Below are positions 556-27,593 of a stretch of DNA of 64,000 nt, one piece after another. The notes under the pieces were generated by a model. It was not told where the DNA came from. It saw only the letters and a list, made by a program, of their open reading frames with translations, and ran no database searches. This DNA is from Alphaproteobacteria bacterium (lineage in GTDB: Bacteria; Pseudomonadota; Alphaproteobacteria; UBA2966): positions 32,001 to 96,000 of the forward strand of contig OZ219858.1 of the NCBI GenBank assembly GCA_964291395.2, in the 5' to 3' direction. The position numbers and the translations under genes were made by a program. The first letter of the stretch is position 1, and each line of letters starts with the position of its first letter.

Positions 556-558
556 GGC

Positions 559-4896: not shown

Positions 4897-5159
4897 ACCT
4901 TCAAGCTATTGAAATTGAGAATCTTTCCGCTTTCGCGAAAGCGTTGGCCGTGGCCTCGTCGGGACGCGCCTTGACGCGCCAGGCAAGGGCCGTGGCCTTG
5001 GTCGCCTCGGAGCCCGGCAGCCGGCTGACAGGGTGTGACAGACCGCACCGATGCGGCCTCATCCTTGCCCTCGGTCTGCCCGTTTACCGGGCTCACCCGA
5101 ACGTTTAGCATCGCACAAGCGAACGAAAGTCCAGCTTCTCCCATTCGCAGGTGAACGGC

Positions 5160-5627: not shown

Positions 5628-5675
5628 GCCAACTCGCGGCCCGAGGCCGAGTTCCGCGAGCGAAGCGGAGTCCGC

Positions 5676-7509: not shown

Positions 7510-7648
7510 GGTCACCTCCCTTCGCCCCATCATAGCCGCAACCGCCACGAGGGAAAACGCCCGCCTCCAACGCCAGCCGTCCAACCCCAGGCCCGACTCG
7601 ATTCATCATTTCGGGTGAAAACAGTACAATGAGGACCGGAGGGAAATC

Positions 7649-8980
7649 ATGAGTGCACTCTCGGCTCCAAGCGGTCAACCCCTGATCATCGACGATGCGG
7701 AGGCGGGCGTTTTCCGCGTCAATCGGGCCGCCTACGCCTCCGAAGAGGTGTTCGAGCGCGAGCAGCGCGCCCTCTACGATCACTGCTGGCTGCTGCTGGG
7801 ACATGAATCCGAGATCTCCCGACCGGGAGATTTCAAGACCCGCACCATAGCGCTGAGGCCGATCATCCTCTGCCGGGGCGACGACGGACGCGTTCGCGCG
7901 TTCATCAATTCCTGCCCCCATCGCGGCGCGGAGCTGTGTCGCGAAACCGAGGGCAACCGATCCATCTTCCACTGCATGTACCACTCGTGGACGTTCAGGA
8001 ACACGGGCGAGGTGCATACGGTGCGGGCCGAGGAGGGATACACCGGCGGATTCCGGCGTGAGGACTTCCACCTCAAGCAGGTGCCGCGCCTCGAGAGCTA
8101 CCGGGAATTCGTCTTCATCTGCTTCGATCCGGACGCGCCCGATCTGGTGACCTACCTCGGAAACGCGGCGCGTTATCTCGACTATCTCGCCGACCAGGGC
8201 GGCAACGGCATGGAAATCGTCGAGGGCACCCAGCTCTACGCCGCGCGGGCGAACTGGAAGCTGCAAATGGAGAACGTCATCGACTTCTACCATACGGTGC
8301 CGCTGCACACGTCCTACTTCCGCTTCCTCGAGAGCACCGGCGCCGACATCTCCGGCGGCGTGGGCGGCGCCGGCTATGACCTCGGCAACGGGCATTCCGC
8401 CGTGCATTTCAAGGCGGGCTGGGGCCGTCCCGTGGCCCGCTGGGAACCCCGCTGGGGCGAGGCGGAGAAACACCGGCTGGAAGCGCTCCGCACCGATATC
8501 GAGTCGCGCGTCGGAGCGCAGCGCGCCGAGATGATCTGCGACTGGGACCACAACATCCTGGTCTTTCCCAACTTGACCGTCGCCGACGTGGTGGCCCTGG
8601 TGGTGCGCGTGGTCAATCCGATCGCGCCCGGCATGATGGAGATCACCCAGTGGTGCCTGGCGCCCAAGGGCGAACCCGAGGAGGCCCGCTCGCGGCGGCT
8701 GCACGCCTTCAACACCTTCCTCGGTCCGGGCGGTTTCGCCACGCCCGACGACATCGAAGTCTTCGAAGGCTCGCAGCGCGCCTTCTGCGCCCACCGGGAA
8801 CTCGCCTGGTCCGATTTTTCACGAGGCTACCACGGGGAAGCGACCCGGCCCGAAACGGAGATCCGGTCCGACTACGAGGGTCAAATCCGGGCCTTCTACC
8901 GCGAATGGGCGGCGCGCATGGGAGCCATTGTCTCACATCGCGTGGACGGCGCCCTGCCCCGCGAGGCAGCCGCGGAATGA
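7649..8980 (+). CDS. Rieske ring-hydroxylating dioxygenase alpha subunit (benzoate/p-cumate-like)
   Basis: CPHRG...CMYHSW; NWKLQMENVIDFYHTVPLH; FLGPGGFATPDDIE. Confidence 0.95.
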   Translation: MSALSAPSGQPLIIDDAEAGVFRVNRAAYASEEVFEREQRALYDHCWLLLGHESEISRPGDFKTRTIALRPIILCRGDDGRVRAFINSCPHRGAELCRETEGNRSIFHCMYHSWTFRNTGEVHTVRAEEGYTGGFRREDFHLKQVPRLESYREFVFICFDPDAPDLVTYLGNAARYLDYLADQGGNGMEIVEGTQLYAARANWKLQMENVIDFYHTVPLHTSYFRFLESTGADISGGVGGAGYDLGNGHSAVHFKAGWGRPVARWEPRWGEAEKHRLEALRTDIESRVGAQRAEMICDWDHNILVFPNLTVADVVALVVRVVNPIAPGMMEITQWCLAPKGEPEEARSRRLHAFNTFLGPGGFATPDDIEVFEGSQRAFCAHRELAWSDFSRGYHGEATRPETEIRSDYEGQIRAFYREWAARMGAIVSHRVDGALPREAAAE

Positions 8981-9483
8981 CGGCCGCGGCCGCCGGCACG
9001 CCAACCGTCACGGCATCCGATCTGGAGAGTTTCCTCTATCACGAAGCGGACCTGCTCGACTCCTGGCGCCTTGAGGATTGGCTGGAACTCTTCCTGCCCG
9101 ACGGCACCTACGAGGTGCCGACGACGGACGCGCCCGACGGCTCGCCCGAGTCGACCCTCCATTTCGTCGCCGACACGATGACCGTGCTGAAAGGCCGGGT
9201 GAACCGCCTGATGAGCCCGGATGGCTATGCCGAGAGCCCACACGCCCGAACCCGACGCTTCATCTCGAACGTCCGTCTGGTCGAGGCGGAGGGGGACATG
9301 GTGCGCCTCGCGGCGAACTTCATGATCGCCCGCATGAAAAAGGGCGCCCAGGACCTGTTCATCGGCCACTACGACCACCGGCTGAAGGTCGCGGGCAACG
9401 GCGAGCTTCGGTTCCAACGTCGGCGATCTATCCTCGATCTGGAAGCCCTGCGCCCGCAGCGATCGGTGAGCATCATCATCTAG
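8977..9483 (+). CDS. Aromatic ring-hydroxylating dioxygenase beta subunit
   Basis: ATGA overlap with alpha; LESFLYHEADLLD, AESPHARTRRFISNVR. Confidence 0.93.
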   Translation: MTAAAAGTPTVTASDLESFLYHEADLLDSWRLEDWLELFLPDGTYEVPTTDAPDGSPESTLHFVADTMTVLKGRVNRLMSPDGYAESPHARTRRFISNVRLVEAEGDMVRLAANFMIARMKKGAQDLFIGHYDHRLKVAGNGELRFQRRRSILDLEALRPQRSVSIII

Positions 9484-9644
9484 GGCGGCCTGGGCTCGAC
9501 CGGAGCCGACCCGCCACTCCTTGTCGCTCACGTCAGCGGATTCATACGCCGCGTCGCGACCTCGGGAGCGGTTCGGGCCTGGCCCGGACCGCTCCGGATC
9601 CATTCGCTTGCCCGGGCACATGGGCTCCTGTACTCACGGATGCC

Positions 9645-10880
9645 ATGTCAGCTAACACCGCTGCCACGTCCGCCTTCCACGCACCCACGCACCCTTACCG
9701 CTGGGCCATGCTGGCCGGCGTCTGGCTGATCTATTTCTCGTTCGGAATCTTCGTCGCGTCGATGGCGCCGCTCGTGGCGCCGATCACGGCTGATCTCGAG
9801 ATTTCCCATGGCGCCATGGGCACCGTGCTGGGCGCCTGGCCTCTGGTCTACATCGCCTCGTCGATCCCCGCGGGCGCCCTGATCGACCGCATGGGTCCGC
9901 GCCGCTCCATCATGCTGTGCACGGTGCTGATCACGCTGTCGGGCATTCTGCGCGGCATCGCCGACGACCACCTGTCGATGTTCCTGGCAGTGGCCGTGTT
10001 CGGACTCGGGGGACCGTTGATCTCGATCGGCGCACCGAAAGTGATGAGCCTTTGGTTCGAGGGCAAGGAGCGGGGCCTTGCCATGGGGATCTACATCTCG
10101 GGGCCGGCGGTCGGCAACATCACGTCGCTGGCACTCACCAACAGCGTCATGATGCCGTTCTATGCGGGAGATTGGCGCGCCGTCCTGTTCACTTATGCAG
10201 GCGTTGCCGTGCTCTGCGGCGGGCTGTGGGTGCTCATCTCGGCCCACCCGGCGAGTCGCACGATGGAGCGGCAGATCGCGGGAGAGCCCAAGCGTTCTCA
10301 GATTCAGGTGTTCGGAGAGCTTCTGTCGGAGCCCGTCGTGCGTCTCATCCTGGTGATGAGCGTCGGCATGTTCATCTTCAACCACGGACTCAACAACTGG
10401 CTGCCGGAAATCCTGCGTACCGGGGGAATGGATGCCGCCACCGCCGGTTACTGGGCGTCGATCCCGACGGCCGTCGGCGTCTTCGCGGCGCTGTCGATAC
10501 CCCGCTTCGCGACGGAAGACCGGCGCCTTTCGGTTCTGGGCCTCCTGTTCCTCGCGGCCGGTGCCGCCACGATGCTGCTGCACCTCTCCGCCGGGCCGTT
10601 GCTGGCGGTTGGACTCGTATGCCAGGGCATTGCGCGCGGCGCCATGATGGCCGTCTCCATTCTCGTGCTCGTGGAATCGCCCGGCGTGGACTCGCGAAAC
10701 TCCGGCGCCGCCGGAGGCCTGTTCTTTTCCGCGGCCGAGGTGGGCGGTGTCCTCGGTCCGGTCCTGGTGGGAGCGATCCATGACCTGACCGGGGGCTTCG
10801 CCGCCTCTCTCTACATGATGACCGCCATCTGCGCCGTTCTGCTCCTTCTCCTCTGCCGGCTACGGTCGCTGACGCGGTAG
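9645..10880 (+). CDS. MFS transporter
   Basis: GALIDRMGPRR motif A, about 12 TM segments. Confidence 0.9.
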   Translation: MSANTAATSAFHAPTHPYRWAMLAGVWLIYFSFGIFVASMAPLVAPITADLEISHGAMGTVLGAWPLVYIASSIPAGALIDRMGPRRSIMLCTVLITLSGILRGIADDHLSMFLAVAVFGLGGPLISIGAPKVMSLWFEGKERGLAMGIYISGPAVGNITSLALTNSVMMPFYAGDWRAVLFTYAGVAVLCGGLWVLISAHPASRTMERQIAGEPKRSQIQVFGELLSEPVVRLILVMSVGMFIFNHGLNNWLPEILRTGGMDAATAGYWASIPTAVGVFAALSIPRFATEDRRLSVLGLLFLAAGAATMLLHLSAGPLLAVGLVCQGIARGAMMAVSILVLVESPGVDSRNSGAAGGLFFSAAEVGGVLGPVLVGAIHDLTGGFAASLYMMTAICAVLLLLLCRLRSLTR

Positions 10881-11096
10881 TCACGACATGGCACCATCGC
10901 CCCTTCGGGACTCGCCGGCGAAATGCCCCGCAACAGATGCATCGTCGACCGCAGGAACGGGGACGGCGCGACGTTCCTTATTACGGCGATTTACAAGTTC
11001 GCGGATTGCGCCTATTGAGGCCCCGCACGCACGGCACGGCTCCGTGCTCCCGACGACACCCGCACTCGACGGAATGGCTCCGTCCTGGGGCACAAC

Positions 11097-12326
11097 ATGA
11101 CCGATTCAGCGACGGCGGGCGCCGCCTTCAGGCGGCGGGTCATAGTCATCATCGCCGCGGCCAGCGTCATCGCGGCGCTGTCCTTCGGCATCCGGTCGTC
11201 GTTCGGTATCTTCCTGCAACCCGTCTCGGCCGACCTCGGCTGGGGCCGCGAGATCTTCGCATTCTCCATCGCGCTCTCGTCCGTCCTGTGGGGCGCGGCC
11301 CAGCCCTTCGCCGGCATGCTAGCCGACCGCTTCGGCTCGGGCAGGGTCCTTGCCGCAGGCGCCCTGATGTACGCCGCGGGCATCGCGCTCATGGCATGGT
11401 CCTCGACCCCGCTGGCCGCTCACCTCACGATCGGCGTCCTCGTCGGACTGGGCAACGCCGGCTGCGGGTTGTGGATCGTATACGCGGCGGTGGCCAGGGC
11501 TGCGGCCCCGGAACGCCGCACCCTGGCGGTAGGCATCGTGTCGGCCGCCGGATCCTTCGGCCAGTTCGCCGTGGTGCCGATCGGGCAGGCCTTCCTCGAC
11601 ACCTACGGCTGGCAGACCGCGTTCGTCCTGCTGGGGATCGCCGCGCTCGCGATGCTGCCGATGGCCGGCGCCATCACCGGCCGCGCCGCGGCATCGGCCG
11701 TCGCTCCACAGAGGTTCCGGGCCGCGCTGACGGAGGCCGCGCGCCATCGCGGCTACCTTCTGCTCAATGCCGGGTTCTTCGTCTGCGGATTCCAGGTCAT
11801 CTTCATCAGCACCCACCTGCCGGCCTACGTGGCGGACCGCGGCCTGCCGGCGGAAATAGGCGCCTGGACGCTGGCCCTTGTCGGCCTGGTAAACATCGTC
11901 GGCTCCATCGTCAGCGGGATGCTGGGCGACCGCTTCAGCAAGAAGAGTCTCCTCACGCTGCTGTACCTCGGCCGGGCCGTCGTGATCGCGGCCTTCGTCC
12001 TGTCACCCCCGTCCATTGCCGGCACACTGACGTTCGGCGTGGTCATGGGTCTCGTGTGGTTCAGCGTCATACCGCTGACGACGGCCCTGGTCGCTCAGAT
12101 CTTCGGTTCGCAATACCTGGGGACTCTTTCCGGCATCGTGTTCCTCAGCCATCAGACCGGCGCCTTCCTCGGCGCGTGGCTGGGCGGCCGCCTGTTCGAT
12201 GCGACGGGCTCCTACGATGTCACATGGTGGATCGCGGTCGCCCTCGGCCTCGCCGCGGCGGCCCTTCACTATCCCATCGACGAACGGCCGCTCAGGCGCG
12301 CGGCTCCCGCAGAAGGCGCCGCCTGA
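11097..12326 (+). CDS. MFS transporter (3' end duplicated at ~20.9-21.1 kb)
   Basis: GMLADRFGSGR and GMLGDRFSKK motifs, about 12 TM. Confidence 0.93.
   Translation: MTDSATAGAAFRRRVIVIIAAASVIAALSFGIRSSFGIFLQPVSADLGWGREIFAFSIALSSVLWGAAQPFAGMLADRFGSGRVLAAGALMYAAGIALMAWSSTPLAAHLTIGVLVGLGNAGCGLWIVYAAVARAAAPERRTLAVGIVSAAGSFGQFAVVPIGQAFLDTYGWQTAFVLLGIAALAMLPMAGAITGRAAASAVAPQRFRAALTEAARHRGYLLLNAGFFVCGFQVIFISTHLPAYVADRGLPAEIGAWTLALVGLVNIVGSIVSGMLGDRFSKKSLLTLLYLGRAVVIAAFVLSPPSIAGTLTFGVVMGLVWFSVIPLTTALVAQIFGSQYLGTLSGIVFLSHQTGAFLGAWLGGRLFDATGSYDVTWWIAVALGLAAAALHYPIDERPLRRAAPAEGAA
12184..12310 (+). repeat. Direct repeat copy 1 (MFS 3' end; left junction of island)
   Basis: 12237-12310 identical (74 bp) to 20992-21065; 12184-12236 matches 20939-20991 with 10 mismatches in 53 nt. 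Confidence 0.95.
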
Positions 12327-13561: not shown

Positions 13562-14164
13562 TCAAAAGCGGTTCTTTATCCTTCGTGCCATTGTTTCCGG
13601 CGGGGTGCCGAAGGCAAAGTGAGTGAGATAGCGACCATCCGGCGCCATCAGGAACGTGACGGTGGAATGGTCGAGCACGTAGTCCCCATCTGTGAGGACC
13701 GTTTTTCTGTAGTACGTGCGAAACGCCTTCGCAGCCGTCGCCACCTGGTCTGCCGTGCCCGTCAAACCGGCAATTTGTGGATGGAAGTTCGCGACGTACT
13801 CGGCAAGGACCTGAGGCGAGTCCCGTTCCGGATCCAAGGTTATGAACAGCGGTTGGATTTTCCGGGCGTCGACCCCGAGCCTGTCCAGTGTCATCGAGAT
13901 TTCCAGCAACGTGGTCGGGCAGATGTCGGGACAGGAAGTGTAGCCAAACGAGATGAGCAGATACTTCCCCCGGTAGAACTCATCGGTCACGGCCCGTCCG
14001 CTGTGGTCGATGAGTTCGAACCGTCCGCCAATGTGGAAAACCTTAACGCTTCCGGTGGTTGAAACCTTCGATTCGGCGTATACGCCGGGTCCACCGGTCG
14101 AAAGGGTCGTCAGCGCAAAGAAGGCGACGGTCGCCAAAGCGGTCTTACTTGTCGATCTCTTCAA
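13562..14164 (-). CDS. SCO1/SenC family copper chaperone
   Basis: FGYTSCPDICP (CxxxC), ITLDPERD, YVLDHS; TTG start after GAGGAG; signal-like N-terminus. Confidence 0.93.
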   Translation of the reverse strand: MKRSTSKTALATVAFFALTTLSTGGPGVYAESKVSTTGSVKVFHIGGRFELIDHSGRAVTDEFYRGKYLLISFGYTSCPDICPTTLLEISMTLDRLGVDARKIQPLFITLDPERDSPQVLAEYVANFHPQIAGLTGTADQVATAAKAFRTYYRKTVLTDGDYVLDHSTVTFLMAPDGRYLTHFAFGTPPETMARRIKNRF

Positions 14165-14213
14165 GAAAGACTCCTCGACCCGACTTTCGGTGCAGCCTCG
14201 AACGGCAATCGAT

Positions 14214-15458
14214 TCAGTGGCAGTAGGCGACCGCGCCAGCCATATATAGGCCCCAGGGCTCCTTACCCACATCGTCAATCACCTTCACGAGACGTTGCTT
14301 CGGAACGTCGATCACCGCAACTTGAGCGGTCTTGCTGAGCGCGATGTAGACCTTGGTACCATCGGGTGTCGTCACGCCAATCTCGGGCGACGAGGGCAAC
14401 GGAATTTCCGCGACCACCTCGGGCTCGGTCAGGTCGACGACCAACGCCTTGTTCTCGGCCCGACTCGGGATCACCGCCGTGGTCTCGAACCAACCCGTGT
14501 TGACCCCCGTCATGTCCCGTGCGCCAGGGATGCGGGCCATCTCCTCCAGCGTCCGCATGGAGATGACAGAGATCGTCCCGTCGCCGTTGTTGAGAGAAAT
14601 CAACTGGAGGCTGTCCGCCGTCGCGTAGGTACGAAACGGCACGTCCCCTAGAACCAGGGTCTTCACCTTCTCCTGCGTGCGCAGGTCGATGACGGTCAAC
14701 GTGTCGCTGGCTCCGTGCGAGGCAAATCCCCTGGATCCGAAGGTGGTGCGGCTGAGGTTGATGACGCCCGGGATCAGCCGCTGCGTTCCCGGATCGACTA
14801 TCCCCATTCTGTCACCGGCGGTGTACGCTCCGATCCCGCCCGATGCCGGCCGCCGGTCCGTTGGGCCGATCGGAATCTCCCCGACCACCTCGCCACTGGC
14901 GACGTCGATGACGCTTACCTCCGCCGACCCTAGATTGCCGACATAAAGCAGCTTCCCGTCGGGACCGAAGACCATGGTGTCCGGACCGTGCAGGCCGGGC
15001 ACCGTTCTCAGCACGCGGCCGTGCCGTAGCGAGACGAGAAAGACTTTTCCGGCCTCGACGCTGCTGGCCGCCACGATCTCGCCGTCGCGGTCGATCTCCA
15101 TACGATCCGGATCGTCCCCGAGCTCGATCCTACGGACCACCGCGAGGGTTTCCAAGTCTACCACTGCGATGCTGTCGTCCACGGTGTTGCTGGCAAGCAG
15201 GAAACCCAGCGGCCTGGATGTACTCGCATCCGTCGGAAGCAGAAGCTGATTGGGAATCTGGTCGAGCCGGAGCGTGGTCTCGAGTTCGTCGGACTCGGTG
15301 TCGATAATCGCCACCTCGCTGGTCGCGCGGTCGGGCACGAATACATAGCGCCGCACGTCGTCGAGCGCCGCCACCGGGTGAATGACCGCGAGCAGAAGCC
15401 CGGCCATCGCGCCGACCCGAACCGCGACGGTCGTCGGCGGACGGGCTCTGCCTAGCAC
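14214..15458 (-). CDS. Exported YVTN/YncE-type beta-propeller protein
   Basis: Repeated blades (PDGKLLYVGN..S.EVSVID, TPDGTKVYIA...VAVID); signal-like N-terminus; ends YCH; start uncertain (15458 or 15407). Confidence 0.85.
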   Translation of the reverse strand: MLGRARPPTTVAVRVGAMAGLLLAVIHPVAALDDVRRYVFVPDRATSEVAIIDTESDELETTLRLDQIPNQLLLPTDASTSRPLGFLLASNTVDDSIAVVDLETLAVVRRIELGDDPDRMEIDRDGEIVAASSVEAGKVFLVSLRHGRVLRTVPGLHGPDTMVFGPDGKLLYVGNLGSAEVSVIDVASGEVVGEIPIGPTDRRPASGGIGAYTAGDRMGIVDPGTQRLIPGVINLSRTTFGSRGFASHGASDTLTVIDLRTQEKVKTLVLGDVPFRTYATADSLQLISLNNGDGTISVISMRTLEEMARIPGARDMTGVNTGWFETTAVIPSRAENKALVVDLTEPEVVAEIPLPSSPEIGVTTPDGTKVYIALSKTAQVAVIDVPKQRLVKVIDDVGKEPWGLYMAGAVAYCH

Positions 15459-15460
15459 CG

Positions 15461-17059
15461 TCAGCCCCCGCTCTCCGCGGCTGGGGCATCTCCGATCAGG
15501 ATGTCGTCGATACGCAGGATCGTGACGGCGACCTCGGTCGCCGAGGCGAGCGCCTGGGTCTTTATCTCCAGGGGCTCGAGAATCCCGGCTTCCCAGGCGT
15601 CGACGAGCTGCCCCGACACGACGTCGAATCCGCACCAGGTGTCGTGCCGCTCATGACGGGCTTCCACCAAGCTCAACTGGTCGATCGCATCTGCACCGGA
15701 GCTCTCTATGAGCGTCCGCGGCACGACGGTCATGGCATCGGCGAACGCTTCGGTGACGAGACGCTCCTTCCCTGTCAGCCCCGCGCGTGCGCGCTCCCTC
15801 AACCGCCGGGTCAGCTCGACCTCGACAGCCCCGGCCCCGGCCACCACCTTGCCACGCGTCAGCGCGCTGCCGATATCACCCACCGCATCTTCGAGGGCCC
15901 GCCGGGCCTCTTCCGCGGCATGCGCCGTGCTCCCCTTCACGAGTAGCGTCACCGCCTTCGGATCCTCGCAATCCTCCACGTAAATGAACGTCGACTTTCC
16001 GAGGGTTTCCTCGTGAATCCTGCCCGCTCGGCCGAGATGGGCGGCGTCCAGCATGTGCGGCGACGAGACGATCCGGGCTCCGGTCGCCTTGGCGAGCCGC
16101 ACCAGATCGCCGCGGGGGACCCGGCGGACTGCGAAGACCCCGGCCTGGCTCAGGAAGTCGTCCGCCGGCTCCTCGATATTCTGCTGGCAGAACAAAACAT
16201 TGCAGCCCGAGGCAACGATCCGTTCGACCATCTCGGCCAGATTCTTCCGCTCCTGCTCCACGAAGGCCTGCATTTGACGGGGGTCGCTGATGTGAATCTG
16301 GGTGGCGATCTCCGGGTCCTTGATCTCGATCGGCTGATCGATCAGCCCCACGTTCGCCCTTTCGACGCGCGTCGGCATGGACGGGTGCGCGCGCTCCCGC
16401 GCCAGCAGCACGCCCTTCATCAGCGTGCTGGCCTCGGTCGGCTCACCGACCATGCGCTCTAGCTTCACTCCGTCGTCGTCGATCACCGCGCGCTTGCCGT
16501 CGTACCGGATCACCTTTCTCACCGCCTGGATGGCGAGCGATGCCAGCGTTTCCTTAGCCGATTCGACGGCCTTTCCGGTCATTGCGGTATGGGCGACCCG
16601 CGTGATGATCTCGTCGTCGTCGGGACCGACCGCCTCGCCGATGTCCTCGAGGATCTCCTGGGCCATGCGTTCGGCGGTGCGAAAACCTCGGGCGATGACG
16701 GCTGGATGAAGGTCCATCTCCAGCAGGTCTTCAGCCTTGCGCAACACCTCGCCGGCGAGCACGATGACGGTCGTCGTGCCGTCTCCGACTTTGTCCTGCT
16801 GCGTGACGGCCGCCTCGATGGCCAGCTTGGCGGCGGGATGCCTGACCCGCATTTCGTTGAGGAGCGTGAAGCCGTCGTTCGTCACGACGATGTCGCCCAG
16901 GCCGTCGACGACCATCTTGTCCATGCCCTTGGGCCCGAGCGTGGAGCGCACGGTTTGGGCAAGGGCATGGATGACCGAGATGTTCGACCGGTGGGCGTCC
17001 CTGCCGGTCGTCCTTTCCATGTCCTCGGATACTCCGAGCGTGTCCCGCCTGTTCACCAT
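15461..17059 (-). CDS. Thermosome-type group II chaperonin subunit
   Basis: STLGPKGMDKM, VTNDG, HPAAK, VGDGTTT, TAMTGK, lid segment IEIKDPEIATQIHISDP, VLFCQ, AVRRV, LAKATGARIV, ILRIDD. Confidence 0.93.
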   Translation of the reverse strand: MVNRRDTLGVSEDMERTTGRDAHRSNISVIHALAQTVRSTLGPKGMDKMVVDGLGDIVVTNDGFTLLNEMRVRHPAAKLAIEAAVTQQDKVGDGTTTVIVLAGEVLRKAEDLLEMDLHPAVIARGFRTAERMAQEILEDIGEAVGPDDDEIITRVAHTAMTGKAVESAKETLASLAIQAVRKVIRYDGKRAVIDDDGVKLERMVGEPTEASTLMKGVLLARERAHPSMPTRVERANVGLIDQPIEIKDPEIATQIHISDPRQMQAFVEQERKNLAEMVERIVASGCNVLFCQQNIEEPADDFLSQAGVFAVRRVPRGDLVRLAKATGARIVSSPHMLDAAHLGRAGRIHEETLGKSTFIYVEDCEDPKAVTLLVKGSTAHAAEEARRALEDAVGDIGSALTRGKVVAGAGAVEVELTRRLRERARAGLTGKERLVTEAFADAMTVVPRTLIESSGADAIDQLSLVEARHERHDTWCGFDVVSGQLVDAWEAGILEPLEIKTQALASATEVAVTILRIDDILIGDAPAAESGG

Positions 17060-17233
17060 GCCGATAGCCCTCCCTCACCGGCGCGCCCACTACCGGCCTG
17101 GCAAGGAGCCTCCCAAAATCCCGGATTGCCGGGGATTGCGAGCGGCTCCTTCCTCAGGCTCCGCACCGTGCGTGGGCGTCCGTCCCCACGGCCCTCGCGA
17201 AAGGAGGGGTGGCTTCCGTCGCCGGCCCGTCGG

Positions 17234-18559
17234 CTAGATCCGGAACGCCTTCATTGCCTCTCCCCAGGCGCGTTTGCGGAAGGCATCGGACGTCACGTCC
17301 ACCGTGCCCTCCGTCATGACGCCGGTGATGGGCTCGAAGGGTTCCGTGAGCTCCGGCGCGTGATGCGTGTCGATCAGTTCGTCGAGCTTGAACTTCTTCT
17401 TGCCCAAACCGATCTTCATCATCGTATCGTTCCACAGCGAGTCGACCGACGCGTAGTTGAGCCCGTAGTGCCAACGGGCCCGGAAGTACTCCGACACCCA
17501 TTCCACGGGGGCGGGCGTACCGGAAACCTGGGCGGCGATCTCGACCGTCTCCCCCCAGTTGTCCCGCATGAACTCGCAGGCCTTCTTGTGGCCCTCGATC
17601 ACCGCGAGGATCATCTCGTCGGGAAGACCCGGCCGAGCCGCCAGCCCAACGCACTGCACGTAGGTCTGGGTGTCCCGGCCGTCGGCGCTCATCATGTGGT
17701 CGCCGCCGTCGAGGCAGTGGCCGATCACCTTGGCCTCCTTGAAGTATTCCGGATACGAGTCGTACTGCTCGCAGATGGTCTGCGCGTCGACCTGGCCCGT
17801 GACCAGGGCCGTGGCCACCTCGGGTGGCGGCAGGTAGTGGATCTTGAAGTCCTTCTCCGGATCGAGCCCGTGGTCCATGATGGTCCGGAAGCACGCGGCG
17901 TGCGTGATCGTCCCGGGCACGAGCGTGGATATCCGGACGGGATCTCCGTCCGCCTTCCGCTTGGCCGCATACTCGAAGAACTTAGGGAAATCCGTGAGGC
18001 CCTGATCGTAGAGTTCCTGCCGGACGGCCCAGCCGCCGTGGCCGACCATGCCGCCCACGATGTGCTTCGAGGGGATGCCCTTCTGGGCCGCGACCCCGGG
18101 CGTGTTGCTGCCGACGTAGGCGAAGTCAATCTCTTCCGCGATGAACGCTTCCATCACCTGCGGACCGGAGGGCGCGCCGAGGAACTTGGTATCCCAGCCC
18201 ATGCTCTCGAAGATCCCCTTCTTCTCGAGAATGTAGCCCAGGAGCTCACAATCGAGAGTATTGATGTAGCCGTATCGTATAGTGCCTTTCGTGGCACCCT
18301 TCGTGGACGTCCCGGCTTTCGCGCCGGTCGGGGTCGCCGCGATCGAACTCGCAAGGGCGAACGCCGTGCCGCCCGCCGCCGCGGCTTGACCGAACTCGCG
18401 ACGCGTGAGACTACGGGCACGCACGCGGTCCAACTCTGCCCTGTGTTCGTGATACTCCCGGTGGGTCTTCTGAAACGCCTTGGGCGTTATGTCCGGATCC
18501 ATGACCAAGTCCCAGAAGCCCGTCTCTCCGGTCCCATCCTGGTTGCGCTTGGTTGTCAT
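17234..18559 (-). CDS. ABC transporter substrate-binding protein, NitT/TauT/SsuA-like, Tat signal
   Basis: LTRREFG twin-arginine motif, TIRYGY, SGPQVMEAF...IDFAYVG, ALVTGQVDA; AAGGAG RBS. Confidence 0.85.
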   Translation of the reverse strand: MTTKRNQDGTGETGFWDLVMDPDITPKAFQKTHREYHEHRAELDRVRARSLTRREFGQAAAAGGTAFALASSIAATPTGAKAGTSTKGATKGTIRYGYINTLDCELLGYILEKKGIFESMGWDTKFLGAPSGPQVMEAFIAEEIDFAYVGSNTPGVAAQKGIPSKHIVGGMVGHGGWAVRQELYDQGLTDFPKFFEYAAKRKADGDPVRISTLVPGTITHAACFRTIMDHGLDPEKDFKIHYLPPPEVATALVTGQVDAQTICEQYDSYPEYFKEAKVIGHCLDGGDHMMSADGRDTQTYVQCVGLAARPGLPDEMILAVIEGHKKACEFMRDNWGETVEIAAQVSGTPAPVEWVSEYFRARWHYGLNYASVDSLWNDTMMKIGLGKKKFKLDELIDTHHAPELTEPFEPITGVMTEGTVDVTSDAFRKRAWGEAMKAFRI

Positions 18560-18624
18560 CTTCTTGCTCCTTCGCCGCCGTTGCTGTCGCGCCTGCATTC
18601 AGTGTGATCCGACGGTAACGGCGC

Positions 18625-18861
18625 CTATTCCGCCGCTTGCGGCTTTCGTTTGATGGTCAAGCCTTCGGGTTCATCGCCGTATTCCGGCAGATGCTCCCCC
18701 GCCTTGTAATGATTGAAGCCCGGATGTTCTCGCACGATGACGTAGACGTACTCCCGTGGCGCCTCGAAATGGTCCACGACCGCATTCGTGAGGGCTTCCT
18801 GAAGCGCATGAATGTCTTCTCTGGAGCGGCCCTCCCGCACATCAATCTGAATGATCGGCAT
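18625..18861 (-). CDS. 4-oxalocrotonate tautomerase superfamily protein (CaaD alpha-like)
   Basis: Pro1 after Met, DVREGRS, VIVRE, GEHLPEY. Confidence 0.85.
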   Translation of the reverse strand: MPIIQIDVREGRSREDIHALQEALTNAVVDHFEAPREYVYVIVREHPGFNHYKAGEHLPEYGDEPEGLTIKRKPQAAE

Positions 18862-19003
18862 AACTTTACTCCCGCGTGTTCACTTCAGCTTCGCGGCCCG
18901 TCACATTAACCCGCACGACCCGGCCGCCCGAGGAAACGCACGAGCCGATGAGTAGAAGTATCGGCCTGCACCGGGATCCTGGCAAACGAATAGTGACAGC
19001 GTC

Positions 19004-19026
19004 TCGGATAAACCCGGTTTATCCGA
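19004..19026. promoter_or_regulatory. Perfect 11-1-11 palindrome, candidate operator
   Basis: TCGGATAAACC-C-GGTTTATCCGA in the intergenic gap upstream of the tautomerase gene. Confidence 0.55.
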
Positions 19027-19066
19027 AGAATTGGGACTTGCCCGCCCTCGCGCCATTTTCACGAAC

Positions 19067-19825
19067 TCAGAACTCGTCTTGGCGCATCATCCTGTAAATC
19101 TCGGCTTCGAGGTCAACGAGACGAGAATCCCCGGAATCGCGATCTACATTGGGTGTCCGCAGATCCCGGTCGAGGTCGAACACTCTGACGATTTCGCCGG
19201 GCTTGGTCTTGAAAAGCGATATGCGCGAGCCGAGAAGAAGCGCCTCCCGGATCGAATGAGTCACGAACACGACCGTCTTTTGCGTTTCCTTCCAGATTCG
19301 CAGAAGCTCCTGTTGCATGTAAGTCCGCGTCTGAGCGTCGAGCGCTCCGAACGGCTCGTCCATGAGCAGCATGGCGGGATCGTTCGCGAGTACCGAGGCA
19401 AGCACCATTTTCTGTTTCATTCCGCCCGATATCTGAGACGGATAGTAGGTCTCGAACTCGCGGAGGCCGACCAGATCGACATACTTCTGCGCGACATCCA
19501 TGCGCTCGTCCTTCGGCAAACCCTGCACTTCCAGACCGAATTCGATGTTGCGGATGACGGTTCGCCAGGCGAAGTGGGTTCCTTCCTGAAAGACGAGCGC
19601 CCGATCGGCGCCGGGGCCCGTAATCGGCCGGTCACCGCGCGCGACCTGTCCACTCGTCGGGAACTCGAAGCCGGCGATCATGCGCAACAAGGTCGTCTTG
19701 CCGCATCCGCTGGGCCCCAGCAGCACGTGGAGCTCTCCGGTCAATATCTCGAGGTCGATTCCTTGCAGAGCCTGAAAGCCGTTGAAGCTTTTCGAGACAC
19801 TCTCGATCGTGACCTCGGCGCTCAT
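19067..19825 (-). CDS. ABC transporter ATP-binding protein (TauB/SsuB-like)
   Basis: GPSGCGKTT, ISGGMKQK, LLMDEPFGALDAQTR, FVTH. Confidence 0.95.
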   Translation of the reverse strand: MSAEVTIESVSKSFNGFQALQGIDLEILTGELHVLLGPSGCGKTTLLRMIAGFEFPTSGQVARGDRPITGPGADRALVFQEGTHFAWRTVIRNIEFGLEVQGLPKDERMDVAQKYVDLVGLREFETYYPSQISGGMKQKMVLASVLANDPAMLLMDEPFGALDAQTRTYMQQELLRIWKETQKTVVFVTHSIREALLLGSRISLFKTKPGEIVRVFDLDRDLRTPNVDRDSGDSRLVDLEAEIYRMMRQDEF

Positions 19826-20691
19826 CCCTTCACCACTCCTTTGCGCCAACGGAAGAGCACGTCCTCGATGGCCAGGACTCCCCGGACCATGAGTACGCTC
19901 AAGGCGCCGATAGCGACCATCCCGCCGATCACCGCCTCGGTCTCGAAGGCATAACGGGCCTTCCAGATCATCCAGCCGAGACCGTGGTCTACCGAGATCA
20001 TCTCCGCCGCCACGACCGTCATCCAGCAGAAGCCGATGGCGATGCGCATGCCGACGAAAGCCGAGGGAAGCGCCGAGGGAACGACGACCTTCCAGAGAAC
20101 CTGGCGGGTGGATGCACCGAGCGTCTGCGAGTACTCGATAACCTTCTTATCCACCGAGTGGACCCCCGCGATCACGGAGACGATCATCGGGAAGAAGGCT
20201 CCCAGCGTGGTGATGAATATGACCGACTTCACGCCGACGCCGAGCCAGATTACGCTCAGCGGAATCCAGGCCAACGGCGGCACCGGGCGCAGGACCTCGA
20301 CCAGCGGATTTATCAGTTGTTCAAGGACCCGCGACCAGCCGATCAGCAAGCCCAGCGGCATGGCCAGTATCAGCCCGATGAAGAAGCCGCCGAAGACCCG
20401 CGCACAACTCCACAGGATGGCCTGGACCAGATCGCCGGAGACCATGCGGTCGAAGAGCGTGACCACCACCGTGGTAAAGGTGGGCAGCTTGATGGGCGGA
20501 AACACACCTGTCCGCGCGACCGCCTCCCACACCACAATCGCCACCGCGATCACGATCAACGACCGCACCGTTCCGAAGATTCGGGGCTTCGCGCCCGCTC
20601 CGTCAGACTGTGGACTTCGTTGGTCCGCGAGGGCTCCGTGCGTCAGCGTCTCTACCGAGGACTCGGAATCACCCGTCGTCGTGCTGGCCAT
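19822..20691 (-). CDS. ABC transporter permease (TauC/SsuC-like)
   Basis: LRPVPPLAWIPL, EAA-like EYSQTLGAS...VVVPSALP, VVAAEM; ATGA coupling to ATPase. Confidence 0.95.
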   Translation of the reverse strand: MASTTTGDSESSVETLTHGALADQRSPQSDGAGAKPRIFGTVRSLIVIAVAIVVWEAVARTGVFPPIKLPTFTTVVVTLFDRMVSGDLVQAILWSCARVFGGFFIGLILAMPLGLLIGWSRVLEQLINPLVEVLRPVPPLAWIPLSVIWLGVGVKSVIFITTLGAFFPMIVSVIAGVHSVDKKVIEYSQTLGASTRQVLWKVVVPSALPSAFVGMRIAIGFCWMTVVAAEMISVDHGLGWMIWKARYAFETEAVIGGMVAIGALSVLMVRGVLAIEDVLFRWRKGVVKG

Positions 20692-20938
20692 GACGGCATC
20701 TCCCGTATCACGCACAACCCCTCTGCCGTGCGGCAAGGACCTCCCCCGCCGAACCATCGGCCGAGACCGTCGGAACGCGAAACAGCGAAAGTATCGGCCG
20801 GTGGCACGGGGCTGACAAACGATTAATCATCGGGTTCGCACAAATCCTACTAAAGCGATGGTATCGATCCTTGCAACCGAGGCGAAGGTGACGTTCGCCC
20901 GGCTGTCCGAAAATCCCTTTCGCCAAGCACTTGGCATA

Positions 20939-21069
20939 GCGGCCGCCTGTTCGACTTGACGGGTTCGTACGACATTACGTGGTGGATCGCCGTCGCCCTC
21001 GGCCTCGCCGCGGCGGCCCTTCACTATCCCATCGACGAACGGCCGCTCAGGCGCGCGGCTCCCGCTTGA
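20939..21069 (+). repeat. Direct repeat copy 2: detached MFS 3' fragment (right junction)
   Basis: Translates GRLFDLTGSYDITWWIAVALGLAAAALHYPIDERPLRRAAPA*, no start or upstream MFS sequence. Confidence 0.95.
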
Positions 21070-22850: not shown

Positions 22851-23483
22851 ATGAAGCTCCACGACTTCGATCCCGCTCCCAATGCCCAGCGTGTCCGCGT
22901 GTTCATGGCGGAGAAGGGACTCGAGATTCCGATCGTCGAGGTGAAGGTACGCGACGGCGTGATGTTCGAAGAACCCTACCGCTCCATGAACCCCTTCGCG
23001 GTCGTTCCGTTCCTCGAGCTCGATGACGGGACGTGCATCGGCGAGTCGGTCTCTATCTGCCGCTACCTGGAAGATCTCCATCCGACGCCCTCCCTGATGG
23101 GACGCGACCCCAAGGAACGAGCACTCATCGACATGTGGAACCGTCGGGTCGAACTGGACGGTTACTTGCCCATCATGCATGCGCTGCGCAACGCGGAGCC
23201 TTCATTTCAGGGGCGGGTCGTCCCCGGCACACGGAACGATCTCGTCCAATTCCCCGAAATCGTCGAGCGGGGCAAGGACATGCAGCTGATCCTGCTCGAA
23301 CGGCTCGAGGCGCAGCTCGCGGACAATCGCTTCATCGCCGGCGAGGCCTTCTCCATCGCCGATATCACCGGCTATTTCTTGATCCGATTGGGAGACCGGC
23401 TCGATTTCCCAATTCCCGATGACCGGCCCAACGTGGCACGCTGGTACGAAGACGTGGCCGCCCGTCCGAGCACCCAGGCCTAG
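22851..23483 (+). CDS. Glutathione S-transferase family protein
   Basis: APNAQRVRVFMAEKG, NP...VP.LELDDG.CIGES..ICRYLE, FSIADIT. Confidence 0.93.
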   Translation: MKLHDFDPAPNAQRVRVFMAEKGLEIPIVEVKVRDGVMFEEPYRSMNPFAVVPFLELDDGTCIGESVSICRYLEDLHPTPSLMGRDPKERALIDMWNRRVELDGYLPIMHALRNAEPSFQGRVVPGTRNDLVQFPEIVERGKDMQLILLERLEAQLADNRFIAGEAFSIADITGYFLIRLGDRLDFPIPDDRPNVARWYEDVAARPSTQA

Positions 23484-23589
23484 GAAACGGCGCGCCCGCA
23501 CGGTTCCGCCCCGACACCATGCGCTTTGACGAAGCGCCCGTCTCTCCTACACTGGACGAGGGCTCTGACTCCGTATCTGGAAGGCTGCC

Positions 23590-24537
23590 ATGTCCGTCTC
23601 CCTCGTCTGCATGTCGCACAGCCCGCTCATGATGGGCGCGCTGTCCCCTTCCGATCGGTCCCAGGAGGAGACGTTCTTCCACGTTGTCAGCGAAGCCGGA
23701 GAGTGGATCGAATCTAGGGACCCGGACCTGATCGTGGTTTTCGGACCGGATCATTTCGGTGGGCTTTTCTACGATCTGATGCCGGGCTTCGTGATCGCCG
23801 CCGCGGCCCATGGCAGCCACGATTGGGGACTGGAACCGGGTCCCCTGGACGTTCCCGAGGACATCGCCATGGCGTGCTTCCGCCACCTCACGGCCGAGGG
23901 ATTCGATCCGGCGTTTTCCTACGACATGCGGGTCGACCACGGCACCACCATCCCGCTGATCAAACTCACCGGAGCGCTGGCCGCCTACCCGGTCCTGCCC
24001 ATCGTCATCAACTGCGCCGCCATCACCCGCCCCGGGTTCCGCCGCGTACGGGAGTTGGGCGCCGCGGTCGGTCGATTTTTGGCCGGCCTCGACAAGCGCA
24101 TCGTCATCATCGGCTCCGGGGGACTTTCGCACGATCCGCCCACGCCGGTGATCGACCTCAACGACGAGAGAATCGTAAACAGAGTGGTCAAGCGGAACGT
24201 GCCTACACCCGAGGAGTTCAAGCGCCGCGAAGCCCGGGTGGTCGAGGCGGCGAAGGCGATGTGCCGGGGCGAAGGTCCGCTTCTGCCGCCGAGCGAGAAG
24301 TTCGACCGGCGATTCCTGGAGCATTTGATGATGGGCGACCTCGAAGCGTTCGACGACTGGTCCGATGAGATGATGGACCGGGAAGCCGGGTTCGGCGGCC
24401 ATGAAGTGCGCTGCTGGGTGGCCGCCGCGGCGGCGGTGGCGGCGGCGTCGGACGGCGAGCCGGATTTCACCCTCGACTATTACGACATCATCCCCGAGTG
24501 GATCACCGGCATGGCCGTGGTGCGCGGCACCGCGTAG
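23590..24537 (+). CDS. mhpB: Extradiol ring-cleavage dioxygenase, MhpB/LigB family
   Basis: CMSHSPL, FGPDHF.GLFYDLMP, VDHG, GSGGLSHDPP, GGHEVRCWVAA. Confidence 0.85.
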   Translation: MSVSLVCMSHSPLMMGALSPSDRSQEETFFHVVSEAGEWIESRDPDLIVVFGPDHFGGLFYDLMPGFVIAAAAHGSHDWGLEPGPLDVPEDIAMACFRHLTAEGFDPAFSYDMRVDHGTTIPLIKLTGALAAYPVLPIVINCAAITRPGFRRVRELGAAVGRFLAGLDKRIVIIGSGGLSHDPPTPVIDLNDERIVNRVVKRNVPTPEEFKRREARVVEAAKAMCRGEGPLLPPSEKFDRRFLEHLMMGDLEAFDDWSDEMMDREAGFGGHEVRCWVAAAAAVAAASDGEPDFTLDYYDIIPEWITGMAVVRGTA

Positions 24538-24754
24538 TTCCTGCGCCGACCAAGACACGCTCGACCCCCGTCCAACTCTCCCTCCCTCGCCGAGGCCGTG
24601 GAGGGCAGGAGGCCATGTCCACGAAAGCACCTCGCACTTTGGAAAATCATCGCATTCCCGCCTGCGGCGGCAGGCATCACCGAAGCGTTGATCCCACCGT
24701 CCCGGTTGACGGGTTTTCACGAATCTGCTGCAAGAGCCCACTCCGGGTACCGAT

Positions 24755-25978
24755 GTGACAACCGCCGCATCCGCTCCTCTCAGCCGAGACGTCAAGGTCA
24801 TCGGCCTTGTCGGAAGCGCGCACGTCGTCAGCCATTTCTTTCAGCTGGCGTTGCCGCCGCTTTTTCCGATCCTCAAAGACGATCTGGGCGTCTCCTACGC
24901 CGCTCTCGGCCTGTTGAGTACGGTTTTCTTCGTCGCCTCGGCCGTAACCCAACCCGCCATGGGATTTCTCGTGGACCGCATCGGCGCGCGGCGCGTGCTG
25001 ATCATCGGCATCACCCTGCTCGGCCTCTCTTATCTGATGATGGGGCTGCTGCCCACGTATCCCGCCTTCATCGTCCTGGCAGCGATCGGCGGAGTCGGCA
25101 ACTCCGTGTTCCATCCCGCGGACTACTCGATCCTGACGGCATCCGTCAGCGAGAGGCGTTTGGGCCGGGCCTACAGCGCCCATACGGTGGGCGGCAACGT
25201 CGGCTGGACCCTTGCCCCAATCGTCATGATCGCATTGGCTGCCGTCATCGGGTGGCAGGGCGCCCTGATCTCGATCGGCATCGCCGGATTGGCGCTCGGC
25301 GCGTTCCTGACGTGGCGAGGCTCGCTGCTGCGAGACGAAAGCGACGCTCATAGACGTTCGGAGGGGGGTGGCGATGGTGGTTCGCGAACCACGGGGTTCG
25401 CGTTCCTCTTCAACGCGTCCATTCTCGCGTCTTTCATCTTCTTCATGTTCCTGGCCATGGGGCAGTTCGGGATTCAGTCGTTCTCCGTGACCGCGCTCAA
25501 CACGGTCTACGGCGTCGATCTCGCGCTGGCCGGTTCCGTGCTAACGACCTATCTGGCGGCGGGCGCCGTCGGGACCATCGTCGGCGGGGTCGCGGCCGAC
25601 CGCGTGCGGGACCCCGGGATGATCGTCGCGGTCACCTTCGCGATTACGGCGCTGATCTTCGTGGCCATGGGTGGCCTCGAATTGCCGTTTTGGGCGATGT
25701 TCACGGGCTTCGCCCTGACCGGGTTCGCCATGGGAGTCGCCATGCCGTCCCGAGATCTCATCGTCAAGCGCGCAACGCCGGCGGGCGCGACGGGCCGGGT
25801 GTTCGGCTTCGTCTACTCCGGGCTGGATATCGGCGGGACCATCACCCCGGTCTTGTTCGGCGCCTTCATGGACCTCGGCCGGCCCCACTGGCTCTATCAC
25901 ACCGTGGCGCTGCTGATCTTTGCCGCCATATGCAGTGTCCTGGTTGTCCGGCAACGGACCGGCGGCGCCAGCGGCTGA
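24755..25978 (+). CDS. MFS transporter (Fsr-like)
   Basis: HVVSHFFQLALPPLFP, GFLVDRIGARR, GNSVFHPAD. Confidence 0.92.
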   Translation: MTTAASAPLSRDVKVIGLVGSAHVVSHFFQLALPPLFPILKDDLGVSYAALGLLSTVFFVASAVTQPAMGFLVDRIGARRVLIIGITLLGLSYLMMGLLPTYPAFIVLAAIGGVGNSVFHPADYSILTASVSERRLGRAYSAHTVGGNVGWTLAPIVMIALAAVIGWQGALISIGIAGLALGAFLTWRGSLLRDESDAHRRSEGGGDGGSRTTGFAFLFNASILASFIFFMFLAMGQFGIQSFSVTALNTVYGVDLALAGSVLTTYLAAGAVGTIVGGVAADRVRDPGMIVAVTFAITALIFVAMGGLELPFWAMFTGFALTGFAMGVAMPSRDLIVKRATPAGATGRVFGFVYSGLDIGGTITPVLFGAFMDLGRPHWLYHTVALLIFAAICSVLVVRQRTGGASG

Positions 25979-25997
25979 CGGAGGACACCATTCAGTC

Positions 25998-26033
25998 CCA
26001 TGGCGGTTTCAAGCCGGGTTTGAACCGCCATGG
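25998..26033. repeat. REP-like palindrome copy 1, possible bidirectional terminator
   Basis: CCATGGCGGTT...AACCGCCATGG at convergent gene ends; near-copy at 60900-60934. Confidence 0.7.
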
Positions 26034-26686
26034 AGCCCCTTGAAATCCGACGGCGCGTCGGACTGGTTTTGCGCCAGGGCATCGCGGAACGCCGGCATGC
26101 CCTCGCACAATCCGTAGATCCGCCGCACCGTCGGATAGAGCGTCAAATCACAGTCATAGCGGCGCGAAACCTGTATCAGCGAGGCCAGGCATATGTCGGC
26201 GAACGTCAGAGATTCTCCATGGCAATAAGTTCCCGTGGCCGGATCACCGACGAGCGACGCCTCCAGCATTTCCAGCCCCTGGCGAACCCAGTCATGGCAC
26301 CAGCGACGAACGCCAGCCTCGTCCTGGTTCAGGTCGTCGGCAAGGCGGTTGCGTATGCGGCTGGGCAGCAGTGCGAAGATGTCCCCGACCAAGGCGAGCG
26401 ACAGGCTGCGCACGCGTGCCCGGCCGGCCGCATCCTCGGGCAGCAGCGGGGGCTCGGGAAATCTCTCCTCCAGGTACTCGAGGATGGCCAGGGACTGCGT
26501 TACGACCACGTCGCCATCCTTCAGCGCCGGAATCTTTCCCTGCGGGTTGAGGGCCCGGTAACCGGGGGACGCGGTGTCGCCCTTCAGAACATCGACGATC
26601 TCGTCCTCGTAGGCGATGCCCTTGAGATTGAGCGCGACACGCGCCCGGTAGACATTGGAGGACAGGTAATAGCCGTAAAGTTTCAT
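26009..26686 (-). CDS. maiA: Maleylacetoacetate isomerase-like GST zeta protein
   Basis: MKLYGYYLSSNVYRARVALNLKG, NPQGKIPAL, QSLAILEYLEE, YCHGE..T.ADICL. Confidence 0.8.
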   Translation of the reverse strand: MKLYGYYLSSNVYRARVALNLKGIAYEDEIVDVLKGDTASPGYRALNPQGKIPALKDGDVVVTQSLAILEYLEERFPEPPLLPEDAAGRARVRSLSLALVGDIFALLPSRIRNRLADDLNQDEAGVRRWCHDWVRQGLEMLEASLVGDPATGTYCHGESLTFADICLASLIQVSRRYDCDLTLYPTVRRIYGLCEGMPAFRDALAQNQSDAPSDFKGLHGGSNPA

Positions 26687-26694
26687 GGGACGGA

Positions 26695-27489: not shown

Positions 27490-27593
27490 AACCTATCCCA
27501 CCGACCCGTTTCGGCCCAAGCGCCGCCCACCTTTACGCCAACGGAACGACCCTTCACACTTGCCCGCCGTTCAACCGGAAGGCCCTCAGCCGC

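Follow-up and report, generated by a model that had tools for sequence, protein, structure and literature searches.

What is a thermosome, a group II chaperonin, doing in a bacterium among the genes of an ABC importer? The initial annotation of our window (the whole stretch of DNA that was analysed, 64,000 nucleotides) described seven co-oriented genes and a downstream LysR gene, with the thermosome stop 2 nt from the likely propeller start and SCO beginning about 50 nt after the propeller stop. All eight lie on the minus strand (Table 1); the propeller start 2 nt from the thermosome stop is a GTG codon, at which the 98%-identical database protein P0139 also starts, and the SCO gene begins with TTG 49 nt past the propeller stop. 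That description lacked a 139-nt flanking repeat, two similar promoter-like sites and the signal peptide of the propeller. Its author knew of no described pathway of such composition; our literature search found no report of this linkage between thermosome and importer.

The eight genes lie within an islet of 8.75 kb, both flanks of which are copies of the 139-nt 3' end of an MFS gene. The two copies are spaced 8755 nt apart, are 89% identical, and are indistinguishable over their final ~70 nt. Open reading frames and domain searches revealed no integrase gene between the repeats. The cluster is real and bounded, in support of the initial idea that it is a unit, and the islet is probably a mobile block. 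Carriage by a plasmid was rejected, as the binding protein has no close match on plasmids and the plasmid-borne thermosome matches are all haloarchaeal (24/24), and carriage by a phage was likewise rejected, the phage search having returned three weak partial matches. A search for a riboswitch or tRNA anchor gave a single match, a tRNA-Lys gene at 56259-56334, distant from the islet. Just outside the islet, the upstream gene encodes a candidate new selenoprotein; it had no match in Pfam, NCBIfam or PDB searches, and it may resemble linalool-dehydratase.

Table 1. Genes, promoter-like sites and boundary repeats of the islet (positions in the window)
Feature	Position	Strand	Remarks
ABC permease, SsuC/TauC/SaoP group	20691-19822	-	under all cutoffs; 54% identity to Afipia copy
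ABC ATPase, nitrate/sulfonate/taurine group	19825-19067	-	67% identity to Afipia copy
Tautomerase	18861-18625	-	PF01361; Pro1, Arg8/Arg11; accessory
NMT1/SsuA-type binding protein, twin-arginine motif	18559-17234	-	
Thermosome, group II chaperonin, small distinct clade	17059-15461	-	NF041082 618.7 bits, cutoff 450
YVTN/YncE-like beta-propeller, secreted	15458-14214	-	family C-terminus Tyr-Cys-His; signal peptide judged by eye
SCO1/SenC protein, CxxxC + distal His	14164-13562	-	PF02630 166.8 bits; accessory
GcvA-like LysR regulator, within islet	13276-12374	-	NF008352 349.9 bits, cutoff 288
Promoter-like site P1	20789..20825	-	99 nt ahead of permease
Promoter-like site P2	18956..18992	-	96 nt ahead of tautomerase; 26/37 nt identical to P1
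Left boundary repeat	12172..12310	+	3' end of MFS gene 11097-12326
Right boundary repeat	20927..21065	+	orphan copy of MFS 3' end; stop in MFS frame closes copy

The host is bacterial. The same 64-kb window contains mreB, mreC, mrdA and leuA, all above their NCBIfam cutoffs, the GC3 of the thermosome gene (0.84) matches that of flanking genes (0.80-0.88), and the database holds near-identical proteins (34, 28 and 22 members); for these reasons we rejected an archaeal contig or a chimera. The promoter scan performed at chance (2 sites found, 1.6 expected), so P1 and P2 count solely through their position and mutual identity; P2 probably drives transcription from tautomerase through SCO. In the related loci of the Afipia group, described below, the P1/P2 motif had no convincing copy, the one match (in locus L002) containing four mismatches.

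The chaperonin is, by its sequence, a true group II thermosome with intact ATPase residues. It passes the NCBIfam models NF041082 and NF041083 (609 bits, cutoff 400) and falls below the cutoff of TIGR02339 (594.4 of 671.1). Its alignment with the Methanococcus chaperonin Mm-cpn is gap-free across the nucleotide-sensing loop and the lid region, indicating a lid of group II length. K163 of the sensing loop is kept in 20/20 members of its clade, as are the GDGTT P-loop and the catalytic Asp pair, labelled after Mm-cpn. In a quick tree, which took in no group III sequence, these 20 members form a long-branched clade apart from the archaeal thermosomes. Five of the 25 changes fixed in the clade fall within residues 293-298, a concentration equalled by 10 of 20000 random sets, and these residues presumably form the beginning of substrate-binding helix 11. 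A role of helix 11 in substrate binding by chaperonins is given in the available part of PMC9704529. A Met-rich tail is found in one of the 20 clade members versus 91 of 102 in the archaeal-type comparison set, which consists mostly of DPANN-type matches. The neighbourhood of the gene in the window, as in both Afipia loci, consists of ABC genes and not of a dnaK/dnaJ/grpE operon, so gene context joins the lid and the sensing loop (the feature used to separate group II from group III in PMC5635000) in ruling out a group III assignment, as far as the available part of that source describes the group.

The order binding protein-permease-ATPase-thermosome-propeller is seen in two Afipia-group loci, L001 and L002, where successive genes are 21, -4, 46 and 9 nt apart. 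Between the window and these loci, identity is highest for the ATPase (67%), followed by the binding protein and thermosome (58% each), the permease (54%) and the propeller (30%). The initial annotation's refuting condition, that homologs of the components never co-occur, thus fails in our neighbourhood scan: importer, thermosome and propeller recur together. Tautomerase, SCO and LysR are not supported as core parts, being missing from both loci, which instead hold an aconitase X pair divergently upstream; they are lineage-specific additions. The conserved core is the ABC importer plus the thermosome, with the propeller present in both lineages seen as DNA. Neighbourhood DNA was seen for the window and, as a second and independent lineage, for the Afipia group, in a GTDB scan that was incomplete, in that it did not return the locus of the cultured strain Afipia carboxidovorans OM5, which carries the binding protein. 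Three loci of distant binding-protein relatives have no thermosome.

Six of 13 binding-protein homologues match one of the 18 top thermosome matches in the size of the longest source contig; in the same comparison with the 102 archaeal-type thermosomes, one of 13 matched (about 0.18 expected). From this equality we infer six further thermosome/binding-protein pairs, although equal sizes can arise by chance, as at 2068 and 1805. Across eight pairs the identities of the two proteins correlate (r 0.85, exact Mantel 5/40320), and all four supported splits are common to the thermosome and binding-protein trees. This co-divergence is joint inheritance of thermosome and binding protein; it does not name the client.

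Could the thermosome be a passenger, captured with the ABC genes from an archaeon, linked to them by hitch-hiking and acting as a general stress chaperone? The mobility of the block would allow this, distant relatives of the binding protein occur in haloarchaea, and a single-protein group III chaperonin shields Escherichia coli from heat (PMC5220055, in the part available). We consider it unlikely, however, since the linkage has outlasted about 40% divergence and a changed gene order, the apical domain has a concentration of the changes fixed in the clade, and neither dnaK nor other heat-shock genes lie within the islet or adjoining in L001/L002.

The binding protein has features that single it out as a candidate client. 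It is rare, with six representatives at E <1e-30 among 1.84 billion. A twin-arginine pair (R53, R54), invariant in 14/14 core binding proteins, is followed by a hydrophobic stretch, so that the protein is a predicted Tat substrate, and a conserved leader of ~35 residues precedes the motif. The same 14 proteins all have a cysteine triad, C104/C263/C303, placed in the cleft by motif homology, with a model of only moderate quality (pLDDT 65). Among 73 distant relatives the Tat motif occurs in 5/5 with the triad vs 10/68 without it, using tolerances loosened after a first pass; in that stricter pass the figures were 2/2 and 12/71 (p 0.035). In fold the protein resembles the CmpC regulatory domain (Z 17.3) and NrtA and PqqT (16.1), and identity of <=20% to SsuA, TauA, NrtA, CmpA and PqqT does not permit transfer of a ligand from structure comparison. 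Family atlas look-ups returned generic families and nothing more specific.

That the chaperonin travels with one rare importer suggests that it was repurposed to fold the importer's unusual binding protein ahead of export. We read the locus as a mobile islet centred on a rare ABC importer, to which an archaeal-derived group II chaperonin belongs as client-specific maturase, an account in which our confidence is evenly balanced. The chaperonin would act in the cytoplasm, most likely on the twin-arginine binding protein, which, ahead of Tat export, would have to fold and probably also acquire a metal held by the thiols of the cysteine triad; the leader ahead of the RR motif would be a candidate handle for the chaperonin. 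The substrate of the importer may be a metal or metalloid that reacts with thiols, or a small acid chelated to a metal, and the propeller may be a secreted periplasmic accessory that has lost the His site of its family. Against the maturase account, the ATPase is more conserved than either the binding protein or the thermosome, a 174-nt spacer with strong predicted folding parts the binding-protein and thermosome genes, and the propeller directly follows the thermosome in both lineages. A more specific form, in which a thermosome domesticated in bacteria would proofread for Tat by recognising the leader via a remodelled helix 11, loading metal or Fe-S on the triad and releasing the precursor to Tat, is doubtful; if true, it would mean a group II chaperonin with a single client and a class of ABC binding proteins that carry a cofactor.

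The ATPase and permease are linked to the thermosome equally well in the loci seen, and in Afipia the thermosome lies 46 nt after the ATPase and the aconitase X pair lies upstream, so the chaperonin might instead assemble the importer's membrane part (ATPase or permease), or else a neighbouring enzyme of the Fe-S or tautomerase kind. This is improbable, because neither ATPase nor permease stands out within the very large group to which they belong, rarity being confined to the binding protein, and each lineage has enzymes of its own; the nearest solved relatives of the tautomerase are 7M59 (E 1e-16) and the CaaD alpha subunit (E 2e-9).

The initial annotation proposed that the chaperonin folds either the propeller or the Tat-exported protein. 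The second option fits our data best. For the first, the thermosome adjoins the propeller in both lineages (gaps of 2 and 9 nt) and might fold it or keep it export-competent, much as CCT folds propellers, including WD40 proteins (PMC9704529, in the part available). Both thermosome-linked propellers are unusually diverged and without three His of the propeller face that are invariant in 113/113 other family members (N70, R119 and D160 in the window copy, which keeps the terminal Cys-His); in the family tree, where the His-less propellers have long branches, a single origin for them has support of 46. Two propeller matches also share a source-contig size (20430 and 3704, compared by eye) with clade thermosomes. 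We nevertheless consider this reading unlikely, because the propeller carries a Sec-type signal (by eye; a Tat-like motif occurs in 2/119 family rows), implying folding in the periplasm outside the cytoplasm, and because its family is widespread, with 402 matches vs about 20 clade thermosomes. In addition, the propeller is the least conserved protein between the lineages, and none of the six thermosome/binding-protein contig sizes appears, by eye, among the 120 of 402 propeller matches listed. In a close relative, P0140, permease residues 1-125 are fused to a near-complete propeller, which is consistent with loss of the intervening genes, the thermosome among them. Our propeller model spans the protein minus its signal peptide and final 30 residues. 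As for copper loading by SCO, also proposed initially, all annotated propeller neighbourhoods that came into view belong to cobalamin operons, so copper is not favoured over other metals.

The question of how group II chaperonins select their clients has usually been approached through CCT, which has eight subunits. It becomes directly testable with a mesophilic thermosome that is encoded by a single gene, has one candidate client and differs in its substrate-binding helix. The locus also points to an uncharacterised family of binding proteins with a cysteine triad and predicted Tat export. Reviews describe bacterial archaeal-like chaperonins as group III, encoded in dnaK operons; the clade described here, truly group II and linked to a single transporter, is unlike that picture.

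Compared with the archaeal group II thermosome (Mm-cpn, PDB 3KFB/3J3X), the protein is alike in its gap-free loop and lid, its catalytic residues and its passing of the NCBIfam alpha/beta cutoffs, but differs in its bacterial host, own long-branched clade, altered apical motif, lack of a Met-rich tail and ABC operon. Group III chaperonins such as Carboxydothermus Ch-CPN are likewise bacterial, archaeal-like and equipped with a built-in lid; as described in the available parts of PMC5635000 and PMC5220055, they lack the sensing loop (Arg replacing Lys), have a lid four residues shorter and lie in dnaK operons, whereas the thermosome here keeps loop, Lys and lid length and is not accompanied by dnaK. 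MmoG, a GroEL-like chaperonin encoded in operons for soluble methane monooxygenase, with a proposed role in maturing one metalloprotein client (PMC9324122, in the part available), provides a precedent for the maturase account, being operon-embedded with a single proposed client; it is a group I protein without a lid that acts on a cytoplasmic enzyme, whereas our group II chaperonin has as its candidate client a transporter subunit destined for export. In the SAO ABC system (SaoA/SaoP/SaoX), binding-protein cysteines converge in the cleft (bioRxiv 10.1101/2022.07.06.499078). It too is an importer of the nitrate/sulfonate/taurine group, and SaoP is the best NCBIfam match of our permease, but the scores for SaoA, SaoP and SaoX (205.9/360, 178.6/295 and 35/300) are all below cutoff, the transporter genes contain no in-frame TGA (no Sec), and the remaining genes of the nine-gene SAO locus are absent. 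Finally, the binding protein has its fold in common with SsuA, TauA, NrtA, CmpA and PqqT, and differs from these distant homologues in its Tat signal, long conserved leader and cysteine triad.

Annotation and coordinates in the window confirm the eight genes named in the initial annotation (permease, ATPase, tautomerase, an NMT1/SsuA-type binding protein with a twin-arginine motif, thermosome, YVTN propeller, SCO and LysR, all on the minus strand), as well as the two intergenic spacings it gave on either side of the propeller gene. The host is bacterial, as mreB, mreC, mrdA and leuA are present in the same window, and the GC3 of the thermosome gene (0.84) is in line with that of flanking genes. 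An assembly accident was considered as the source of the cluster and rejected because the databases contain near-identical thermosome (93%), binding (93%) and propeller (98% identical) proteins. A 139-nt direct repeat with 89% identical copies, the longest in the window by self-comparison, places a duplicated MFS 3' end at both flanks; therefore, LysR through permease is one inserted unit of 8.75 kb. The unit has slightly lower GC content (0.62 vs 0.65), and no integrase gene is present within it. Two promoter-like sites, identical at 26 of 37 nt, are located 99 nt before the permease gene and 96 nt before the tautomerase gene, with the number of sites in the scan at chance level (2 found, 1.6 expected).

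Features located in the window and at related loci
Sequence	Coordinates	Feature
Window	12172-12310	direct repeat, left copy: 3' end of MFS gene
Window	20927-21065	direct repeat, right copy: orphan, encodes same MFS C-terminus, terminates at stop
Window	22665-21118 (-)	candidate new selenoprotein, just outside islet
Window	21996-21994	in-frame TGA of candidate selenoprotein
Window	88-9483 and 22851-33466	dense catabolic gene context: molybdenum-hydroxylase subunits, two divergent Rieske oxygenase alpha subunits, LigB-type dioxygenase, GST, hydantoinase A/B
Window	48254-48317 and 49163-49226	inverted repeat, 64 nt, 78% identical (self-comparison)
L001 (Afipia group; L002 similar)	6096-9758	split aconitase X pair with adjoining genes
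L008 (Manganitrophus plasmid)	9887-11101	His-bearing YCH propeller
L009 (Manganitrophus plasmid)	8284-9497	His-bearing YCH propeller

In the candidate selenoprotein, reading through the TGA connects two ORFs to give a protein of 515 aa; the TGA lines up with a Cys of a 38%-identical Streptomyces protein. A hairpin ~18 nt after the TGA, with a 5-nt loop starting GG, agrees with the loop and spacing rules described for bacterial SECIS elements (PMC13188914); its energy is no better than that of shuffled sequences (z 0.1). Searches of Pfam (with the two halves), NCBIfam and PDB returned no family for the candidate.

By its sequence features, the window chaperonin belongs to group II, not group III. 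It scores above the thermosome alpha and beta cutoffs and below that of TIGR02339 (NCBIfam profiles), and its alignment with the Methanococcus group II chaperonin Mm-cpn is gap-free across the sensing loop and lid. Group III chaperonins, the archaeal-like chaperonins of bacteria, are described as lacking the sensing loop and having a shorter lid (PMC5635000), whereas the window copy keeps the loop and the lid length, and group III genes are located in dnaK operons (PMC5220055; PMC5904260). Two supplements of PMC5635000 contain no Oligotropha, Afipia or proteobacterial entry. Among the best 120 thermosome homologues listed, the top 18 are 52-93% identical and the remainder 49-53%, the named organisms in the remainder being DPANN/Woesearchaeota. 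A quick tree of 58 rows, which sampled 35 of the 102 archaeal-type matches and held no group III or GroEL row, groups the window copy, two Afipia-group copies and 17 matches in a 20-row clade (SH-aLRT 100, stem 0.76), with the database protein P0017 as its sister. P0017, encoded on a 2-kb contig, falls between the clade and the archaeal types, its apical motif being half changed. The clade keeps the catalytic residues in 20/20 members, has lost the Met-rich tail and differs from the archaeal set at 25 fixed positions, 5 of them inside residues 293-298, where we place the beginning of helix 11. The groove that binds clients is made up of this helix and the proximal loop (PMC9704529; bioRxiv 10.1101/775585).

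The thermosome gene is linked with importer genes. As the most probable reading, to which we give an even chance, we propose that the thermosome would act as a cytoplasmic maturase for the islet's ABC importer and that its client would be the Tat binding protein; client, metal and substrate are our inference. A client role of the ATPase, the permease or a neighbouring enzyme seems to us quite unlikely, and a mere passenger role of the thermosome rather unlikely. A GTDB scan for binding-protein loci (71 stretches looked at, 5 loci confirmed) yielded two close loci, both Afipia-group, with the order binding protein, permease, ATPase, thermosome, propeller, and three distant loci with ABC genes only. 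Neither Afipia-group locus contains tautomerase, SCO or LysR within 21 kb. Upstream of the Afipia operons, and divergent from them, is a split archaeal-style aconitase X pair, adjoined by CobT-like and IclR genes; both loci conserve the intergenic promoter region, which the pair may share with the ABC-thermosome operon.

For 6 of the 13 binding proteins, the longest contig equals in size that of a clade thermosome. Only one equals any of the 102 archaeal-type matches, on a contig too short for both genes, and 4 of the 7 unmatched binding proteins are on contigs <2.6 kb. Over eight thermosome/binding-protein pairs, two seen as DNA and six inferred from equal-sized contigs, the identities correlate (r 0.85, 5/40320 permutations), and the two trees have four supported splits in common. 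The correlated identities and common splits show joint inheritance of the two proteins, not interaction.

With regard to the Tat binding protein as the putative client, Tat exports folded, cofactor-loaded proteins. The binding protein is rare (6 representatives at E <1e-30 among 1.84 billion), its 13 homologues, one from Afipia carboxidovorans OM5, are 56-93% identical, and its predicted model (pLDDT 65) has an SsuA/NrtA/CmpA-type fold. Residues 14-47, ahead of the invariant RR, have a conservation of 0.65 vs 0.55 in the hydrophobic signal region, and C104, C263 and C303 are invariant in 14/14 proteins. In a distant set (73 of 91 matches kept, with ≥280 residues and a Met start), the Tat motif occurred in 5/5 relatives with the Cys triad vs 10/68 without it in a looser second pass (p 2e-4), and in 2/2 vs 12/71 in a stricter first pass (p 0.035). 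P0254, P0257, P0260, P0263 and P0267 are distant Tat-type binding proteins with the triad in common; P0254 (42% identical) apparently has the leader twice, judged by eye.

The propeller, which is unlikely to be the client, is modelled as a confident beta-propeller (pLDDT 90; best structural match YVTN 1L0Q); its family has at least 402 members, with 114 of the 120 matches listed ending Tyr-Cys-His (YCH) and a Tat-like motif in only 2/119 members. The window copy shares 44-51% identity with the family and just ~30% with the Afipia copy, and three His that are invariant in 113/113 other members are missing from both thermosome-linked types. The widespread YCH family may be an undescribed periplasmic metal binder. 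On the Manganitrophus plasmids, a His-bearing propeller comes after a porin where a cobalamin operon ends, a context that hints at metal binding, not copper in particular. A 555-aa protein, P0140, joins permease residues 1-125 (78% identical) to a propeller (89%), which points either to a close relative that has lost ATPase, tautomerase, binding protein and thermosome by deletion or to a chimera. SCO, the propeller Cys-His tail and the binding-protein Cys triad hint at a metal, and the tautomerase (nearest solved relatives 7M59 and CaaD alpha) and Afipia aconitase X hint at small organic acids.

Literature searches, which missed most subscription papers, turned up no description of an ABC importer with a linked group II chaperonin. 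For Oligotropha (Afipia) carboxidovorans, a chaperonin of archaeal type may reportedly have been mentioned in surveys from 2010, so the existence of the chaperonin gene may already be known, and its gene context not. In the ABC system SAO (SaoA/SaoP/SaoX), the cysteines of SaoB/SaoX are described as converging in the binding cleft (bioRxiv 10.1101/2022.07.06.499078); the window genes, however, score below the Sao cutoffs. Operon-embedded chaperonins have precedent in MmoG, the GroEL-like chaperonin of soluble methane monooxygenase operons (PMC9324122), which the window thermosome resembles in the embedding of its gene within an operon.
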